Shown here: positions 8,123 through 13,777 of the stretch, one piece after another
How the letters are laid out: the number at the start of each line of letters is the position of its first letter
Numbering within the stretch: position 1 is the stretch's first letter
Origin: a virus
UHGV virus genome: UHGV-1381253
Reading direction: 5' to 3' (one strand)
Length of the DNA: 43,188 nt
Notes under the pieces: model-generated
Databases searched by the model: none
What the model was told of the DNA's origin: nothing
Seen by the model: the letters and a program-made list of their open reading frames with translations, nothing else
Made by a program: the position numbers and the translations under genes

Positions 8123-8299
8123 TTATGACCTCCCTTCTCCTGAATTAGTGGCTTCATGATATAAAACAATCGTTGGAATCATGAATAATATACCACAAGT
8201 GAATAATCCTATGATATTTGATACTAAAAATGCTGATAAAGCGATAAATACTGCGCTAATTATATACAAAACAGCTACAATAACCGCAACAAATTTCAT
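8123..8299 (-). CDS. Small hydrophobic membrane protein (58 aa, hypothetical)
   Basis: Hand-translated minus-strand ORF MKFVAVIVAVLYIISAVFIALSAFLVSNIIGLFTCGILFMIPTIVLYHEATNSGEGRS. AAAGGAGCG RBS 8 nt upstream. Co-directional with the late operon. It is below the ORF-track length cut-off. I prefer it over the antisense 63-aa plus-strand ORF 8181-8372, which has no RBS. Confidence 0.35.
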   Translation of the reverse strand: MKFVAVIVAVLYIISAVFIALSAFLVSNIIGLFTCGILFMIPTIVLYHEATNSGEGRS

Positions 8300-8391: not shown

Positions 8392-10164
8392 TTAGTATCC
8401 AAAACCAAACTCACCACTATCTAGTAAGTCTTGCAATGTTGGTGCGTCATAATCGTGATATTGAGCGTCACTCATGGCATTTATTATGGCGTCAAGTGAG
8501 TCAATTTTATTCCTGTTTATTTGCTTATCAATTGCAACGCTATCATTGTATTCTTTAATCATTGCATTGTATGCTGCACGATTCAATAAAGGGTTATTGG
8601 TGTGCATTACTTCACCTCTACGAATTAACTCACGCAGGGCTCTGGTTGGTGAAGATAAATAGTTAATTTTCTGTGGTACTTCAATTAGTTTTTTAGGGTA
8701 GGTTTTACTTAGATTAATCAAAGCCTTATCCATCATAAATGGATCATAATAAATACCAACCAATTGTAAGTCATTATAATCTATGAAATCACGTATCCAA
8801 TCACACATTTCTTCTGTATCAATTAAGCCATCTTCACGTTGTGAGATGTGAATGAGGTTCATTGCCTCATACTGTCTATAGGGTATTTTATCAATTGATT
8901 GTTTATGGTCTATACCTCCAACTGAAGACACAAAACCATGTGTATCTAATAATAGTTTGTGTTCTTCTTCTATTGGGATAATCCATGAAACGGCTGTCAT
9001 ATCTGATGTTCTTGCTAAGTCAATGCCAATATATACTTTTCTACCCTTAATATTATAATGATTGGGTGCTTTGACGGAATCCCACTCTTCTTTGGTTACA
9101 AAACTATCTTTAGATGATTGTACCCAAAAATTCATTTCTTTCGTTAACCAACCTGATAAATCCATTTTACCCTTGTATTCATCAAGTGAGTTGCGTTTAT
9201 GTTCCATCATTGAGTCGTATGCTTCTGGTATTTCAAACAGTGGGTTTGATTTAATCCAATTTTCTTCGTCATCTACTTCTGATAGACTATCCATTTCCCA
9301 GCAAAGAGCCAAATAAGCGTCACCTTTAACCTCTTCATTAAGTAATTTTTCAACGAATGGATATTCTACAGAGTGCATAGGCCCAGTTAGGTTTTTAGTA
9401 GTTGTTGAAATTATTAGTATTAATCCCTCTAATTGTTGAGATTGAGAGGATTCTAATACTTGAATAATTGCGTCATCTTTAGCTTCACCATATTCATCTA
9501 AAATACCGCATAATACATCTAGTCCATCAAGTGTATCAGCGTCACTTGATAGTGGTTTTACTGTTGATTCATCACTAGCTTCAATATCATATCTACGAAC
9601 AGTTGTTCTTTTTTTAACTTCTTTTGACACACTACGTAACGCAGTTAGCTGTGATTTGAGCATTCTGAAAACGATTCCTGCTTGCTCTTTTGTGTTTGCT
9701 GCTGCAACAACTTGACGACTGGCTGCTGGATTCTTACCAAACAAAAACTCATATAGTGCTATCCCTGAAACCAGTAACGACTTACCATTTTTACGTGCTA
9801 GTGAGATGTATGCTTTTCTAAAGCGTCTAGTATTATCTTTCTTTTTACGCCATCCATAGAGTAACCCAACAATAAATTTCTGAAAGTGGGCTAGTGTTGT
9901 GGTTTTGCGAGACTTAGGATCTGGAAGCATTTCAAGAAATCTAACTGGCGGTATTGCTTCCTCTGCCCTATAAATATATGGATATTTAGGGTCTTTTGAG
10001 CGTTCAATATCCTTCTGATGTCTTTCAATGGCTTTCTGTATTTTTTTACCAACTTTGATTTTAACTTTAATCGGTTTATAATAATCATCTTCTACTATAT
10101 ATTTACGTCCTTCAATCCATCCTGTTTCAATCAGATTGATATAATCTTGTACAAAGTCTTCCAT
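8392..10164 (-). CDS. terL: Terminase large subunit
   Basis: 590 aa. Walker A RKNGKS with the N-terminal ATPase domain, and a C-terminal nuclease region. Confidence 0.9.
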   Translation of the reverse strand: MEDFVQDYINLIETGWIEGRKYIVEDDYYKPIKVKIKVGKKIQKAIERHQKDIERSKDPKYPYIYRAEEAIPPVRFLEMLPDPKSRKTTTLAHFQKFIVGLLYGWRKKKDNTRRFRKAYISLARKNGKSLLVSGIALYEFLFGKNPAASRQVVAAANTKEQAGIVFRMLKSQLTALRSVSKEVKKRTTVRRYDIEASDESTVKPLSSDADTLDGLDVLCGILDEYGEAKDDAIIQVLESSQSQQLEGLILIISTTTKNLTGPMHSVEYPFVEKLLNEEVKGDAYLALCWEMDSLSEVDDEENWIKSNPLFEIPEAYDSMMEHKRNSLDEYKGKMDLSGWLTKEMNFWVQSSKDSFVTKEEWDSVKAPNHYNIKGRKVYIGIDLARTSDMTAVSWIIPIEEEHKLLLDTHGFVSSVGGIDHKQSIDKIPYRQYEAMNLIHISQREDGLIDTEEMCDWIRDFIDYNDLQLVGIYYDPFMMDKALINLSKTYPKKLIEVPQKINYLSSPTRALRELIRRGEVMHTNNPLLNRAAYNAMIKEYNDSVAIDKQINRNKIDSLDAIINAMSDAQYHDYDAPTLQDLLDSGEFGFGY

Positions 10165-10196
10165 TTATGTATCCTCCTTTTATACTATTCAATTAC

Positions 10197-10207
10197 ATTA
10201 TAGCATA
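10197..10207 (-). promoter_or_regulatory. Extended -10 promoter (TGcTATAAT) for terL, overlapping the upstream terminator U-tract
   Basis: Minus-strand sequence ttttttaTGCTATAATgtaattgaatagtataaaaggaggatacataaATG. Confidence 0.3.
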
Positions 10208-10239
10208 AAAAAGACTCCCTAGTTAGCTAGACTAGGGAG
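10205..10239 (-). terminator. Rho-independent terminator on the minus strand at the 3-prime end of the structured region
   Basis: Perfect 9-bp stem ctccctagt/actagggag with a 7-nt loop. It is followed on the minus strand by tcttttttat. Confidence 0.55.
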
Positions 10240-10299
10240 GTGTTAGTATCTGCTAGTATCCACGCCCTACGTTAAGTGGATACTAGCTTTATGTGTGCA

Positions 10300-10428
10300 C
10301 GTCATCAAATAGGGTCATACTATCACACTCTGCGCCAGATACTGTGGCGTGCGGTCGTTTACGTGCGCCGTTCACGACTGTTCAGTTTCCAACAGCAACC
10401 CTTTTTAACGTGGAGTGTGGTGAACCAC
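10300..10428. repeat. Copy A of the internal duplication inside the structured region
   Basis: Shares gtcatactatcac, ggtcgtttacgtgcgccgt, cacgactgttca and acagcaaccctttttaacgtggagtgtggtgaaccac with copy B. Confidence 0.8.
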
Positions 10429-10558
10429 GATTGCTCGCTGACGGTTAAGGTTTCCAACTCCGTCACAGTGCAAAGTATGGATACCGTCCCATACAGACCA
10501 ACGCTAGGCTAACCCGCCTGCGGGGGGACGTGAGTGACTAACTGCTTTGTCGTGCTTG

Positions 10559-10699
10559 TCGTCAAAGAGGGTCATACTATCACGCATTCGCTAGACACTA
10601 TAGCGAGCGGTCGTTTACGTGCGCCGTCCACGACTGTTCATTGGATATACAATGATATCCTAACAGCAACCCTTTTTATCGTGGAGTGTGGTGAACCAC
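10559..10699. repeat. Copy B of the internal duplication inside the structured region
   Basis: See copy A. One stem differs by a compensatory pair: cgcca/tggcg in A against cgcta/tagcg in B. Confidence 0.8.
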
Positions 10700-11025
10700 T
10701 GTGTGGTGTCCTACCTGGACAGATTCAGTATCAGGACTATGACGAGATAGCCAACGTTTCCTCTTAGGAGCTAAGGTTTCCAACTCTCCTAACGGTTGTT
10801 ACCCATAAGGTACTGACTGGAGTCAACGCTCTAAGTCGCAGCCAACGTTTTGTGTATGTCATTCTTTGAGGAATAAGAAATATACACTACCTTATATGTA
10901 CCGCTGTGAGCTAAGGTTTCCAACTCTCACACCGTTACTCATCAGAGTAAGTTTTAGCATCCCTCGCTTGCGGTGTCACGAGAGGTATTTTGTATGCCAC
11001 CTAACGCGAGTGAATAAATTATAAT

Positions 11026-12045
11026 TTAAAACTCACGTACCATAAACAACTTTTCGCACTTCTTGCCAACGTTAGCTCCTTGCATTGTAGATACCACGTT
11101 ATCAAAAGAATAAACACATTTGAATCTTTTATCTGATATCTCATAACTGCTTATGATAACCACGTTATCCTTAGCCATTTCATATGCCCAATCATAAAAT
11201 TCTTGGCTGTTGAACGATACACCGTAGGCATCGTGTGTATTTTCATATGGCGGGTCAAGATATAGAATAGCGTCTTTGACGTAAGAAAAGTCTTGATAAC
11301 TTAGGTTAGTTATAACTAGTTGTTCTAGTCGCTCTAGTCGCTCTACTTGGTGTAGCGGCTCTAGTTGCTTTAGTCGCCCTAGTTGCTGTAGTATCCTATG
11401 TTTCTCTGGTTTATCCTTAAAATCGGCAAAGTCATTGTTCTGGTTAGTTACGTTAGTTTTATAAGTTTCGGTTTGTTTATATCCGCTAAATACATCATGT
11501 TTTGCTATGATTTCTTTAGCTAAATTGTATTTTAATTCAGAATTTTGTTTTGAATATAGATAACCGCTACTATTATTTCCAAAACTGTTTATCAATAATT
11601 TTAAGTTGTCCGTGACGGTTTTTATTGCTTTTTCCTTAATCTCATAAAACTCATCACGGCTTATGATAAGGGTTTTAAGATAATCTCTATCGCTTTCTAG
11701 CACTTTGGTGAACATATCCGTTACATTCTTGTTTATATCGTTGTAATTGACTTCTAAGCCTTGTAACAAACACTCAGCAGTTATAGCCCCGCCGCCACCG
11801 AAGATGTCGTAAATTGTTTTGTCTGTTCCAAAGTTATCTTTGATAATTTGCACGATTTTCTTACTGATTTTCTTTTTTGAACCCACGTATGGAAGACCAA
11901 GAGCCTTACCTTTACGGACTGCTTTTTCGTTTAACTCTAGCAAAAAGTTGCCACCTCTCTTTTCCTTAATTGAAACAGTCAATCTGTTAATTATTATATC
12001 ACAAAATCCGACTTTTGTGATAATGGTGTATCTAATGTTTACCAC
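11026..12045 (-). CDS. DNA N6-adenine methyltransferase (Dam-like, D12 class)
   Basis: Motif X LPYVGSKKKISKKI, motif I DIFGGGGAI, motif IV YLDPPY, and the C-terminal VVIISSYE block. Located between terS and terL. Confidence 0.8.
   Translation of the reverse strand: MVNIRYTIITKVGFCDIIINRLTVSIKEKRGGNFLLELNEKAVRKGKALGLPYVGSKKKISKKIVQIIKDNFGTDKTIYDIFGGGGAITAECLLQGLEVNYNDINKNVTDMFTKVLESDRDYLKTLIISRDEFYEIKEKAIKTVTDNLKLLINSFGNNSSGYLYSKQNSELKYNLAKEIIAKHDVFSGYKQTETYKTNVTNQNNDFADFKDKPEKHRILQQLGRLKQLEPLHQVERLERLEQLVITNLSYQDFSYVKDAILYLDPPYENTHDAYGVSFNSQEFYDWAYEMAKDNVVIISSYEISDKRFKCVYSFDNVVSTMQGANVGKKCEKLFMVREF
11326..11406. repeat. In-frame tandem repeat, 9 bp x 9 units, inside the MTase TRD
   Basis: Units: ctagttgtt ctagtcgct ctagtcgct ctacttggt gtagcggct ctagttgct ttagtcgcc ctagttgct gtagtatcc. 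On the coding strand it encodes ILQ-QLG-RLK-QLE-PLH-QVE-RLE-RLE-QLV. Confidence 0.85.
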
Positions 12046-12091
12046 TCATTTGCTATAAATAGTATATCATAAACGTTTAGTTTAGTGTAGG

Positions 12092-12556
12092 TTATCCTTC
12101 AAACATTTTTGCGAATGGGTCAAGTACCTCTTTTTCTTTCTCTGCTGGAAGAATAATCTTCATTCTTGAATTGATTGTTAATCCCAGGTCATTGGTTGCC
12201 GTTTTAAGCTCTTTTGAATAGGAGTTCATGGCATTAACCCAAGGGTTTGCTTTACCTGTCTCAGGATCAATTGCGCCCATCTGTGCTACCTTCTCTACTG
12301 CTTCAGCGTATAGATAATTATAGTTACAATATCTAATGACTGTATTCACATCTAACTCACTAATAGGCAAGTCTCCTACATATGCTCCAATGCGATCCCA
12401 TTCATTAAAGGCTTGTGGCAATAAACCTGGTGGATAAAAACTGAAGTCTAGCTTCTCATAATTGTAAAGTACTTCTTCCTCCTTCTCACGCTCTTCTCGT
12501 TGCTGAGTGGTCAAGTTACCACTTTGAGCGTTTAATAATTTCCGTGGTCTTGCCAT
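12092..12556 (-). CDS. terS: Terminase small subunit (P27-family-like)
   Basis: 154 aa, immediately upstream of the packaging genes. N-terminal basic region and a typical TerS size. An HNH endonuclease and candidate cos region lie upstream. Confidence 0.7.
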   Translation of the reverse strand: MARPRKLLNAQSGNLTTQQREEREKEEEVLYNYEKLDFSFYPPGLLPQAFNEWDRIGAYVGDLPISELDVNTVIRYCNYNYLYAEAVEKVAQMGAIDPETGKANPWVNAMNSYSKELKTATNDLGLTINSRMKIILPAEKEKEVLDPFAKMFEG

Positions 12557-12560
12557 GTTA

Positions 12561-12851
12561 TCACTCCTCCTTTGGTGCTTCTGTTTTTGTTAAAGTCCAT
12601 GTGTTTGTTTGGTAGTTCATGTGTAGGTTAAACCATTGTAGTAGGTCGTCACTATAACTAAACTCACTAGCTACTAGTGCTTCTAATGTGTGATGTTCAC
12701 CATGAACTCCTGAGGTTACGTAACTCTCTTCCATTTGATATACGTAGTAGACTTTGTCATTAATCATGAATTGTGGAGCTTGGGTTGCGCCTTCAACTCT
12801 TTGCACATATGTGCGATACTCTGTTTTGATAGTACCTTTTAAATTTTTCAT
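12561..12851 (-). CDS. Hypothetical protein (96 aa; start placed at MKNLKG with an AAAGGAGGA RBS)
   Basis: The ORF track gives 12561-12884. The internal ATG at 12851 has a strong RBS and overlaps the upstream stop. The protein ends TEAPKEE. Confidence 0.5.
   Translation of the reverse strand: MKNLKGTIKTEYRTYVQRVEGATQAPQFMINDKVYYVYQMEESYVTSGVHGEHHTLEALVASEFSYSDDLLQWFNLHMNYQTNTWTLTKTEAPKEE
12565..12584. repeat. 20-bp exact direct repeat, copy 1 (tcctcctttggtgcttctgt)
   Basis: Identical to 12857-12876. On the minus strand it encodes the C-terminal ...EAPKEE and doubles as the SD for the next gene. Confidence 0.85.
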
Positions 12852-12852
12852 T

Positions 12853-13035
12853 TTAATCCTCCTTTGGTGCTTCTGTAATTTCAAAATGACGATTACGTCC
12901 GCCTAATTTTGTTTTAACGTCCTTAAAATAGCCACGCTTCTTTCCATAAAATTCATCTGCTTGAAATTGTGATTTGAATTTACGTGTTTGTCCAGTCGCC
13001 AAATCTTTTACGTACACAGGTTTTGGTGCAGGCAT
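12853..13035 (-). CDS. Hypothetical basic protein (60 aa)
   Basis: GGGAGG RBS. Ends TEAPKED. First gene after the candidate late promoter. Confidence 0.5.
   Translation of the reverse strand: MPAPKPVYVKDLATGQTRKFKSQFQADEFYGKKRGYFKDVKTKLGGRNRHFEITEAPKED
12857..12876. repeat. 20-bp exact direct repeat, copy 2
   Basis: Identical to 12565-12584. Confidence 0.85.
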
Positions 13036-13140: not shown

Positions 13141-13393
13141 GGTGTCTAATGGGGGATAAATCATATTAGGGAAATAACATACTATATATAGTATGAGTCC
13201 TTTATTTTCAATACAAGAAACCAGTTTTAAATCACGTTTACGAGGGGAAAAGGGTGTTTTTGAAAGTTCATTTTTAGAATTTCGTGCGAAGAAGAGGGGG
13301 CAGCGATTAATTCGTTATAAAAAGGCGGGCGGGTAAAAACATTTTGGGTCTCCCTAAAATAATTTTGGCTGCGTGGCTGTTGATATGACGCTG
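13141..13393. other. Candidate cos / packaging-recognition region
   Basis: Non-coding stretch between the HNH endonuclease and the terS-proximal genes. GC-rich runs: gagggggcagcg, aaaggcgggcgggtaaaaac, gggtctccc. Perfect 18-bp palindrome catactatatatagtatg at 13178-13195. The HNH-cos-TerS arrangement is typical of cos phages. Confidence 0.2.
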
Positions 13394-13777
13394 TTACCTA
13401 CCTCTATTTTTCCAACTGTAGTTGTGTTCTTCCTTGTTGTGACACTCGTAACATATTGATTCTAAGTTATTTAATTCAAGTCTATGTTTCCATCCATTTG
13501 GACTTCTTAATTCTATCTTATGGTGAACCATATTAGCGTTGGTATACTTGCCTTGTGCTAAGCATACCTCACAGAGTGGTTGCTCCATTAGCTTGGCTCT
13601 ACGTGCATTCCTCCATTGTGTTGAATGATAGAACTCACTGTACTTCTTATTGCTATCATTGTATCTCACATGCTTATTGTATTGGCTATTGTTATACCCA
13701 CTATGCTCCGTACAATAGCGCTCTGGTAGCGTGACATAGTTGCGGCATGAAGCCACTGCACACTTGCGTTGTCTCAT
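13394..13777 (-). CDS. HNH endonuclease (terminase-associated type)
   Basis: C-terminal CEVC...HHKIELRSPNGW...NNLESICYECHNKEEH matches the HNH motif, and the N-terminus carries a CxxC...YCxxH zinc ribbon. Confidence 0.85.
   Translation of the reverse strand: MRQRKCAVASCRNYVTLPERYCTEHSGYNNSQYNKHVRYNDSNKKYSEFYHSTQWRNARRAKLMEQPLCEVCLAQGKYTNANMVHHKIELRSPNGWKHRLELNNLESICYECHNKEEHNYSWKNRGR

Follow-up and report, generated by a model that had tools for sequence, protein, structure and literature searches.

Why would a phage keep one loop of 15 nucleotides (nt) almost unchanged and hold it out on stems that differ from copy to copy? The question is raised by the virus genome UHGV-1381253, a stretch of 43,188 nt that was analysed at its full length (the window) and that comes from an Enterococcus faecium siphophage of the IME-EFm1/IME-EFm5/9184/BUCT630 group. 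Three hairpins with this loop lie in an 861-nt non-coding gap at 10165-11025, between a DNA methyltransferase gene, located downstream of the terminase gene terS, and the second terminase gene, terL. The answer that we favour, with a probability of roughly 0.55, is that the hairpins are optional 5' modules of a modular non-coding RNA and that their loop serves to dock a trans-acting factor. The RNA, which is modular, double-pseudoknotted and narrow in its distribution, is previously undescribed; a description of an RNA at this locus was not found in the literature.

The three hairpins had been pointed out in an earlier note on this DNA, made from its letters alone. Its coordinates and stems are correct, and the stem of hairpin H1 gains one pair; sequence and pattern search also confirm its shared 15-nt loop with one variable position. 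The 14-mer TAAGGTTTCCAACT occurs in the 43-kb window in three exact copies, all on the plus strand (10446-10459, 10772-10785 and 10912-10925), and the loop consists of this 14-mer plus one variable base, t in H1 and c in H2 and H3. Each copy sits inside its own perfect 6-bp inverted repeat, and all three repeats differ:

10439-10465, minus strand: hairpin H1, stem tgacgg/ccgtca; sense UGACGG, loop AGUUGGAAACCUUAA, CCGUCA.
10765-10791, minus strand: hairpin H2, stem taggag/ctccta; sense UAGGAG, loop AGUUGGAAACCUUAG, CUCCUA.
10905-10931, minus strand: hairpin H3, stem tgtgag/ctcaca; sense UGUGAG, loop AGUUGGAAACCUUAG, CUCACA.

Three exact 14-mers in the window are far beyond chance; the window-wide search gave no further match at up to two mismatches, and a shuffle control gave a mean of 0.6 matches at that tolerance. 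As folds the hairpins are modest. Their energies (H1, H2 and H3: -9.4, -9.4 and -13.3 kcal/mol on the minus strand; -8.8, -7.9 and -8.7 kcal/mol on the plus strand) are unremarkable for their composition, with z-scores of just -1.2 to -3.2. Because the thermodynamics of the hairpins alone says so little, the case rests on comparison with relatives, that is, on covariation.

This comparison is informative. The hairpin alignment (A3) holds 16 distinct copies from the window and its relatives, with about four independent stem versions; 99% of the stem cells pair, and four of the six pairs have changed on both sides. None of 500 shuffles reached the covariation score, and controls slid along the alignment were 26-53% paired. 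The loop is invariant across the copies except for its last base (A/G) and an A-to-G change in one contig. Covarying stems around a fixed loop, originally proposed from the three copies of the window, are thus found again in the 16-copy alignment and at orthologous positions: the hairpin at the orthologous place in the divergent contig L256 keeps the loop on a stem GUGAG/CUCAC, a compensated change.

The sequence around the hairpins is itself structured, and the whole region folds with z = -5.8. In an alignment of 16 sequences (A2), RNAalifold folds the core of the RNA into a hairpin P5, a short helix P6, a long Y hairpin and a terminator; compensated changes are frequent in these helices. Two pseudoknots, PK1 and PK2, were spotted by inspection and then confirmed by pair counting. 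PK1 is 100% paired, with 5 G.U cells, its sole variants being A-U to G.U; PK2, formed by CCCUAY and the Y loop RUAGGG, is 99% paired, CCCUCU/AGAGGG alternating with CCCUAC/GUAGGG; covariation is seen at two of its positions (AU/CG and CG/UA). There are six co-varying pairs in the Y hairpin, and the core covariation score was again reached by 0 of 500 shuffles. The domain of a further module, Mb, which adjoins the hairpin (alignment A4, RNAalifold and pair counts), is 95% paired. It holds about 12 G.U cells, seven of its pairs differ in both partners, and its outer helix has G.U in 9 of 14 sequences.

These helices also tell the strands apart, since G.U pairs of one strand are A.C mismatches on the other. 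Read on the minus strand, the core helices hold some 15 G.U cells and roughly a single C.A cell. The functional molecule is most likely a minus-strand RNA, in the sense of terS and terL, because the neighbouring helices are rich in G.U and nearly free of C.A, and because the predicted promoter and terminator lie on the minus strand as well. From this context, the loop most likely reads AGUUGGAAACCUUA(G/A), or AGUUGGAAACCUUAR, and not Y-UAAGGUUUCCAACU. As the stems of the hairpin are all Watson-Crick, its own strand is judged from the adjoining helices and a single U.G pair at its flank: RNAalifold extends the base of the hairpin by C-G/U.G, with U.G in 10 of 14 sequences. The earlier proposal of a structural role as RNA or single-stranded DNA therefore stands in that the surrounding sequence is structured RNA; its reading of the plus strand gives way to the minus strand.

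Transcription would start at an extended -10 promoter of the sigma-A type right after terS and end at a strong intrinsic terminator directly ahead of the promoter and ribosome-binding site (RBS) of terL; the universal part of the RNA would be a 3' core of about 130 nt, folded by the two pseudoknots. From 5' to 3' the parts are as follows:

12061-12089, minus strand: weaker, P1-like promoter site.
11993-12021, minus strand: promoter P2 directly behind terS, ATCACA-17-TATAAT extended by TG (promoter scan and sequence), where the transcription unit probably begins.
12002-12021, minus strand: inverted repeat CACAAAAGTCGGATTTTGTG, overlapping the -35 region and spacer of P2.
10956-10998, minus strand: module Mb, outer helix GGCAU/AUGCU around a hairpin (10961-10985) with conserved loop GUGACACCGCAAG and co-varying stem.
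10935-10950, minus strand: short variable hairpin after Mb.
10792-10904, minus strand: module Mc, upstream context of the H2-type hairpin, homologous to 9184, BUCT630, IME-EFm1, L256 and L379 (alignment A1, BLAST).
10552-10699, minus strand: core copy 2, partial (direct repeats D1, D3 and D4, alignment A1), with X at 10681-10699, P3 with an extended tip at 10634-10666, P4 at 10610-10634 and P5 at 10589-10605.
10568-10583, minus strand: invariant stretch GUGAUAGUAUGACCCU of core copy 2.
10466-10551, minus strand: linker specific to the window phage, an unaligned insertion in A1, with hairpins at 10475-10494 and, G+C-rich, at 10513-10527 (minimum free energy fold).
10241-10430, minus strand: core copy 1, complete (alignment A2, RNAalifold, pair counts), with hairpin X and its A-rich tail at 10410-10428, P4 at 10354-10378 and P5 at 10333-10349.
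10378-10395, minus strand: hairpin P3 of core copy 1, CUGUU, loop GGAAACUG, AACAG.
10311-10326, minus strand: invariant stretch GUGAUAGUAUGACCCU of core copy 1.
10338-10343 and 10245-10250, minus strand: pseudoknot PK1, P5 loop AGUAUC with GAUACU.
10309-10314 and 10265-10270, minus strand: pseudoknot PK2, CCCUAU with Y loop GUAGGG.
10252-10287, minus strand: Y hairpin of core copy 1.
10207-10239, minus strand: intrinsic terminator, 9-bp stem that is invariant in its upper part and loop and co-varies in its lower part, then a U-run.
10197-10205, minus strand: extended -10 element TGCTATAAT ahead of terL, belonging to the next transcription unit.
10173-10180, minus strand: RBS of terL, AAAGGAGG.

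Core copy 2 is without a Y hairpin, a PK1 3' strand and a terminator of its own. The stretch 10164-10205, with the extended -10 element, the RBS and the start of terL, is invariant in relatives. Relatives too have the inverted repeat CACAAAAGTCGGATTTTGTG behind terS, in many cases twice (P1 and P2), and it may be an operator. Between P1 and P2, at 12028-12042 on the minus strand, AGUGGUAAACAUUAG matches the loop AGUUGGAAACCUUAG at 12 of 15 positions, without paired flanks; it is kept in several relatives (e.g. IME-EFm1 and EF36P1) and could be chance or a degenerate kin of the loop.

How widely is this RNA shared, and which of its parts does every member keep? Motif scans of IMG/VR with the 14-mer and the 15-mer gave at least 120 matches each, which were then filtered for paired flanks, and 27 distinct family members were collected from GenBank phages, from IMG/VR (among the matches listed) and from one metagenome contig. 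Every related phage has a non-coding terS-terL gap, of 400-785 nt or, with a gene inserted, longer. Its modules form a mosaic, and the one universal part is the approximately 130 nt from hairpin P5 to the terminator; L256 keeps the terminator and not this core. The conserved-loop hairpin is present as a single copy in about 19 members and absent from 8, including IME-EFm5, Aramis and EF36P1, and only the window phage has three. Its presence coincides exactly with that of Mb or Mc. Behind Mb it has a TGACGG or TGTGAG stem and behind Mc a TAGGAG stem, the latter module also preceding the hairpin of L256. The H1 version is the single copy in SSBHU, EhiS_268, Bp29, KEN18 and the IMG/VR contigs L187, L244, L288 and L291; the H3 version stands alone, after Mb, in dArtagnan, KEN21, GEC_S_9 and the IMG/VR contigs L032, L105, L175 and L298.

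The window phage appears to be a composite of these versions. Its H3 piece is 98% identical to GEC_S_9, its H2 piece with the partial core 93% identical to BUCT630, and its H1 piece with the complete core 95-100% identical to contig L244; a core segment of about 140 nt is duplicated (10295-10428 and 10552-10699). Since each piece of the gap resembles a different relative, the sequences indicate that the three copies are three lineage versions which, together with a duplicated partial core, were stacked by recombination. A similar core duplication is seen in KEN21. Repeated sites, which the note had raised as a possibility, are not a design of the element: the relatives have one copy or none.

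Outside the clade, the matches to the 14-mer and 15-mer, among those listed, are without paired flanks or lie in coding sequence, the latter being the case for L014 and L034/L283. For this reason the hairpin appears confined to this phage clade, among the matches listed, which is the outcome of the motif search across other phages that had been suggested. In 185,579 bacterial genomes the core pattern had no match, and the hairpin pattern, restricted to G...RC closing bases, had 73, none of them in Enterococcus and all regarded as chance. The lone bacterial match with a 6-bp stem, L307 (Alkalimonas), was rejected: it falls inside a long open reading frame (ORF) that reads as an EAL domain. A metagenome scan with the core pattern gave three matches, of which two duplicate L288 and L291 and the third, L379, is a further clade member.

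Is the RNA a transcription unit of its own or the leader of terL? A promoter element TACACA-17-TGnTATAAT follows terS in relatives. The terminator is annotated as such in phage 9184, and the sole call of a terminator scan in the gap lies at 10215-10239. Extended -10 elements of the form TGNTATAAT number 19 in the window against 4.5 expected, a four-fold excess, with minus-strand sites including 1788, 2415, 3086, 6382, 10197, 11993, 13094, 14608, 35447, 37990 and 41222 and plus-strand sites including 14924, 15951, 22939, 27418 and 32240. Most are just upstream of ORFs in the same direction and one is directly after the terminator of the RNA, which suggests many short transcription units of the sigma-A type across the late region. 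EF36P1, L244 and L256 have taken up an additional ORF that brings a promoter and a terminator of its own, and the order terminator, TGnTATAAT, RBS, terL is rebuilt behind it. Because this order is rebuilt after insertions and TGNTATAAT punctuates the late genes, the sequence evidence favours a self-contained RNA transcription unit over an attenuator. A possible hairpin AUGCUAU/AUAGUAU (10182-10206, minus strand) spans the TATAAT box upstream of the terL RBS; in relatives it reads UAUGCUA/UAGCAUA, with pairing kept in two versions but not in EF36P1.

What, then, could the loop be for? It had been suggested that the loops make tertiary contacts, an idea that is unsupported: no relative has a conserved complementary partner for the loop, whether exact complements of at least 6 nt or RNAduplex scans are considered, and its targets elsewhere in the phage are just chance-level 8-10-mers. 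This lack of a conserved complement, in the RNA or elsewhere in the phage, is why we prefer a trans-acting factor to an internal contact. The 9-mer GUUGGAAAC is common to the conserved loop and the loop of core hairpin P3, whose stem co-varies from CUGUU/AACAG to CGGUU/AACCG in L256 with its loop unchanged; the shared sequence hints at a common reader of GUUGGAAAC in both. In other relatives the tip of P3 is replaced by an extended UUGGAUAUCCAA helix.

We therefore propose a docking module: each hairpin would present AGUUGGAAACCUUA(G/A) on a 6-bp stem whose sole requirement is pairing, and relatives would carry one such hairpin in one of two contexts, after Mb or after Mc. The invariant loop would dock a trans-acting factor, most likely a protein common to all hosts or phages of the clade, and the RNA, made from what would be a strong promoter, may work in trans, perhaps titrating the factor or recruiting it, with extra hairpins adding sites. 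A bolder version, which we regard as unlikely, is that the terS-terL RNA is an abundant decoy or sponge whose modules mimic or capture host factors such as an RNA-binding component of defence or RNA turnover; the locus would then be the RNA counterpart of a protein anti-defence island. Such a decoy would explain the invariant loop, the patchy hairpin in 0-3 copies, the exchange of modules between phages with near-identical TerS, and the insertion of cargo. An alternative novel reading is a packaging-associated RNA for a cos-type terminase.

Several observations weigh against a docking module. No ORF tracks the hairpin when the window, IME-EFm1 and dArtagnan, which have it, are compared with IME-EFm5, Aramis and EF36P1, which do not; TerS is 99-100% identical in the hairpin-less IME-EFm5 and Aramis and the hairpin-bearing IME-EFm1 and dArtagnan, and TerL of the window is 98% identical to that of IME-EFm5, so that the hairpin follows no particular version of TerS or TerL. 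The hairpin is dispensable, because eight relatives lack it entirely. Its covariation rests on the four or so independent stem versions, and its stems are purely Watson-Crick. The RNA is predicted, as are its promoter and terminator, and a site just upstream of terL also fits a cis-regulatory leader.

As a leader of the late terL operon, the P2 transcript would terminate unless its fold, alone or with a bound factor, permitted read-through; the loop hairpins would be nut/boxB-like or put-like recognition sites and the double-pseudoknot core a sensor. We hold this explanation, the main rival, to be possible if doubtful. The layout recommends it, since in every relative a strong terminator closes the structured RNA, 40 nt ahead of the RBS of terL, and in the window the core abuts the terminator, with the 3' strand of PK1 5 nt upstream of its stem. 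This resembles lambda PR'-tR', where transcription from a constitutive promoter reportedly yields a short RNA that terminates in front of the late genes (PMC7547250), and the hairpin over the TATAAT box, paired in two versions, would likewise need a read-through RNA. However, an extended -10 element, TGnTATAAT, stands directly after the terminator, and the terminator-promoter pattern recurs before many late genes and after inserted genes; because this conserved pattern precedes terL, the gene need not depend on read-through. The eight relatives without the hairpin keep the terminator, inspection found no conserved antiterminator pairing, and no antiterminator-like gene correlates with the hairpin among the six genomes compared. 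A lambda-type nut site was rejected, the loop being of 15 nt and no gene tracking hairpin presence in these six genomes; neither boxA nor an N-like gene turned up, no profile search for either having been made.

If the hairpins acted in DNA instead, as single-stranded or cruciform forms recognised by a replication, recombination or packaging protein, their nearest analogies would be the conserved-loop origin hairpins of HUH/Rep proteins and terminase recognition sites. Origin hairpins of the Rep type characteristically combine a conserved loop with stems of free sequence, a pattern which these hairpins fit; their purely Watson-Crick stems fold on both strands, and their position between two terminase genes, in a recombination hot spot, is suggestive. 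We nevertheless consider a DNA-level element very unlikely, for all the neighbouring helices, including the domain adjoining the hairpin, are G.U-rich and strand-specific as in RNA, and packaging is normal in phages that lack the hairpin and whose TerS and TerL are near-identical. No Rep/HUH or transposase match was found among the ORFs scanned (13394-13777, terS, 12561-12884, the methyltransferase and terL), nor in PHROG scans of further small ORFs. The genome ends of IME-EFm1 have been mapped experimentally, with a 9-nt 3' overhang GGGTCAGCG (PMC4445525). By sequence the cos site of the window is probably 13297-13305 (minus strand CGCTGCCCC, within 13270-13330): its flanks match the mapped ends and its overhang differs by one base, GGGGCAGCG versus GGGTCAGCG. 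This cos homologue is about 2.3 kb distant, and the hairpins were accordingly rejected as a cos or terminase recognition site. Least credible of all is a functionless repeat, selfish or hitch-hiking, that recombination has spread as a miniature palindromic element. It would account for the patchy occurrence, the varying number of copies and the mosaic surroundings; mobile palindromic elements conserve their arms, however, whereas here the arms differ and compensate around an invariant 15-nt centre, the flanking modules are just 70-90% identical, and the hairpin occupies two fixed positions (Mb and Mc) and occurs nowhere else in the phage genomes or in the 185,579 bacterial genomes.

The genes around the gap are the following:

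13394-13777, minus strand: HNH endonuclease gene.
12092-12556, minus strand: terS, Terminase_4 family.
11026 to about 11949, minus strand: D12/Dam-class DNA methyltransferase gene (Pfam PF02086, PHROG 56).
8392-10164, minus strand: terL, start codon at 10164.

The real start of the methyltransferase is probably a TTG after an RBS at 11941-11961. Its gene sits between P2 and the RNA modules in the window phage only, relatives having no such gene here, and it is inserted cargo outside the RNA family. Other cargo at the same locus is an HNH gene in Bp29 and an ORF of 86 amino acids in EF36P1, L244 and L256; the terS-terL gap is a hot spot of cargo and recombination. No conserved ORF was found in the gap at 10165-11025, and indels between relatives there are not multiples of three. 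A protein-coding origin of the loop was rejected: short overlapping ORFs set the motif in different frames and on both strands. No tRNA or tmRNA genes were found. Just downstream of terL, an ORF of 58 amino acids (8123-8299, minus strand) is 98-100% identical in all five genomes compared; several records annotate it as 'sensor histidine kinase', a name which its mere 58 amino acids make implausible.

The locus may be of a more general type, because the Efquatrovirus phages of E. faecalis share the layout terS, promoter, RNA, terminator, promoter, terL with a different RNA. TerL of two of these, G01 and EFA1, is 62-66% identical to ours, and their RNA sequences have module Md alone in common with the E. 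faecium phages. In G01 (L380, 2201-2494) and EFA1 (L381, 911-1445), terS is followed by TTTGTGnTATAAT, 290-535 nt of non-coding sequence, a terminator, TGTGCTATAAT and terL. Structured non-coding RNAs of phages are few and most are without a known function; here a compact core of about 130 nt is combined with optional hairpins, and natural variants with 0, 1 or 3 hairpins are ready-made genetic controls. The host phages are lytic on E. faecium and are being developed for therapy against vancomycin-resistant strains. If the loop does bind a host or phage factor, it would define a new RNA-protein recognition pair, and if the locus is an RNA island of anti-defence or regulation, it would bear on host range and phage engineering.

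Does the RNA belong to a known family? Across the whole window there was no match at the gathering threshold to the Rfam 15 families, which include ROOL, GOLLD, T-box, preQ1-I, the phi29 packaging RNA (pRNA) and the self-cleaving ribozymes. At E<=10, two chance-level matches appeared in 10100-11100, PreQ1 (RF00522) at 15.7 bits and NsiR1 at 15.3 bits, both with thresholds of 39, and the latter falls on the terminator; at E<=1 there was nothing in 8 related loci or in the 2 E. faecalis phage loci. A preQ1-I riboswitch was rejected for hairpin X and its A-rich tail, as the score is far below threshold and just the hairpin and A-tail resemble it. Of the four X variants, three have loops of 7-8 nt and one a loop of 11 nt; what follows the A-run also varies among them, and no conserved partner for a P2 helix is apparent. 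H1-H3 were rejected as intrinsic terminators, a T-run following none of them on either strand. Nor does the sequence fit what defines a K-loop or tandem G.A motif, a mimic of a tRNA D-loop (AGUUGG) or of a CRISPR repeat, the distal loop of a T-box, or an ANTAR or PyrR site.

The likenesses that do exist are of architecture. Like phi29 pRNA, in which loops are functionally important, this is a phage non-coding RNA encoded beside packaging genes. The pRNA, however, belongs to phi29-like podoviruses with a protein-primed genome and no terS, and its loops pair between molecules, whereas the present loop is neither self-complementary nor complementary to another loop, and there is no Rfam match; HK97-type cos terminases are not known to need an RNA. 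With lambda nut boxB and HK022 put, hairpins of nascent phage RNA through which RNA polymerase comes to ignore terminators, it has in common a loop whose sequence matters on a stem that need only pair, within a promoter-terminator interval. It differs in the size of that loop, 15 nt against the 5-nt GNRA-like loop of boxB, in the 8 relatives that keep the terminator without the hairpin, and in the promoter that follows the terminator. The CsrB/RsmZ sponges and TwoAYGGAY also carry one motif on the loops of unrelated stems, in variable copy number and with GGA in the loop; here the motif is 15 invariant nt, relatives usually have one copy, there is no Rfam-level match, and CsrA is not known from E. 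faecium.

A bulk screen has reported 14 candidate structured RNAs that are consistently upstream of a putative large terminase gene (PMC10690425); its main text does not mention Enterococcus, and the present family might be among them. ROOL and GOLLD, known from phages and prophages of Firmicutes, are, like our RNA, large multi-domain phage RNAs of several hundred nt from phages of Lactobacillales, noncoding, with pseudoknots and many conserved loops, and the function of both is not known. The present RNA is set apart from them by the absence of an Rfam match in the window or the ten related loci, by a module content that varies among close relatives, by the lack of adjacent tRNA genes, and by its fixed terS-terL position in about 30 genomes and contigs. 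Thus, while a member of none of these families, the RNA is nearest in kind to ROOL and GOLLD and to the multi-loop motif RNAs, Csr/Rsm and TwoAYGGAY.

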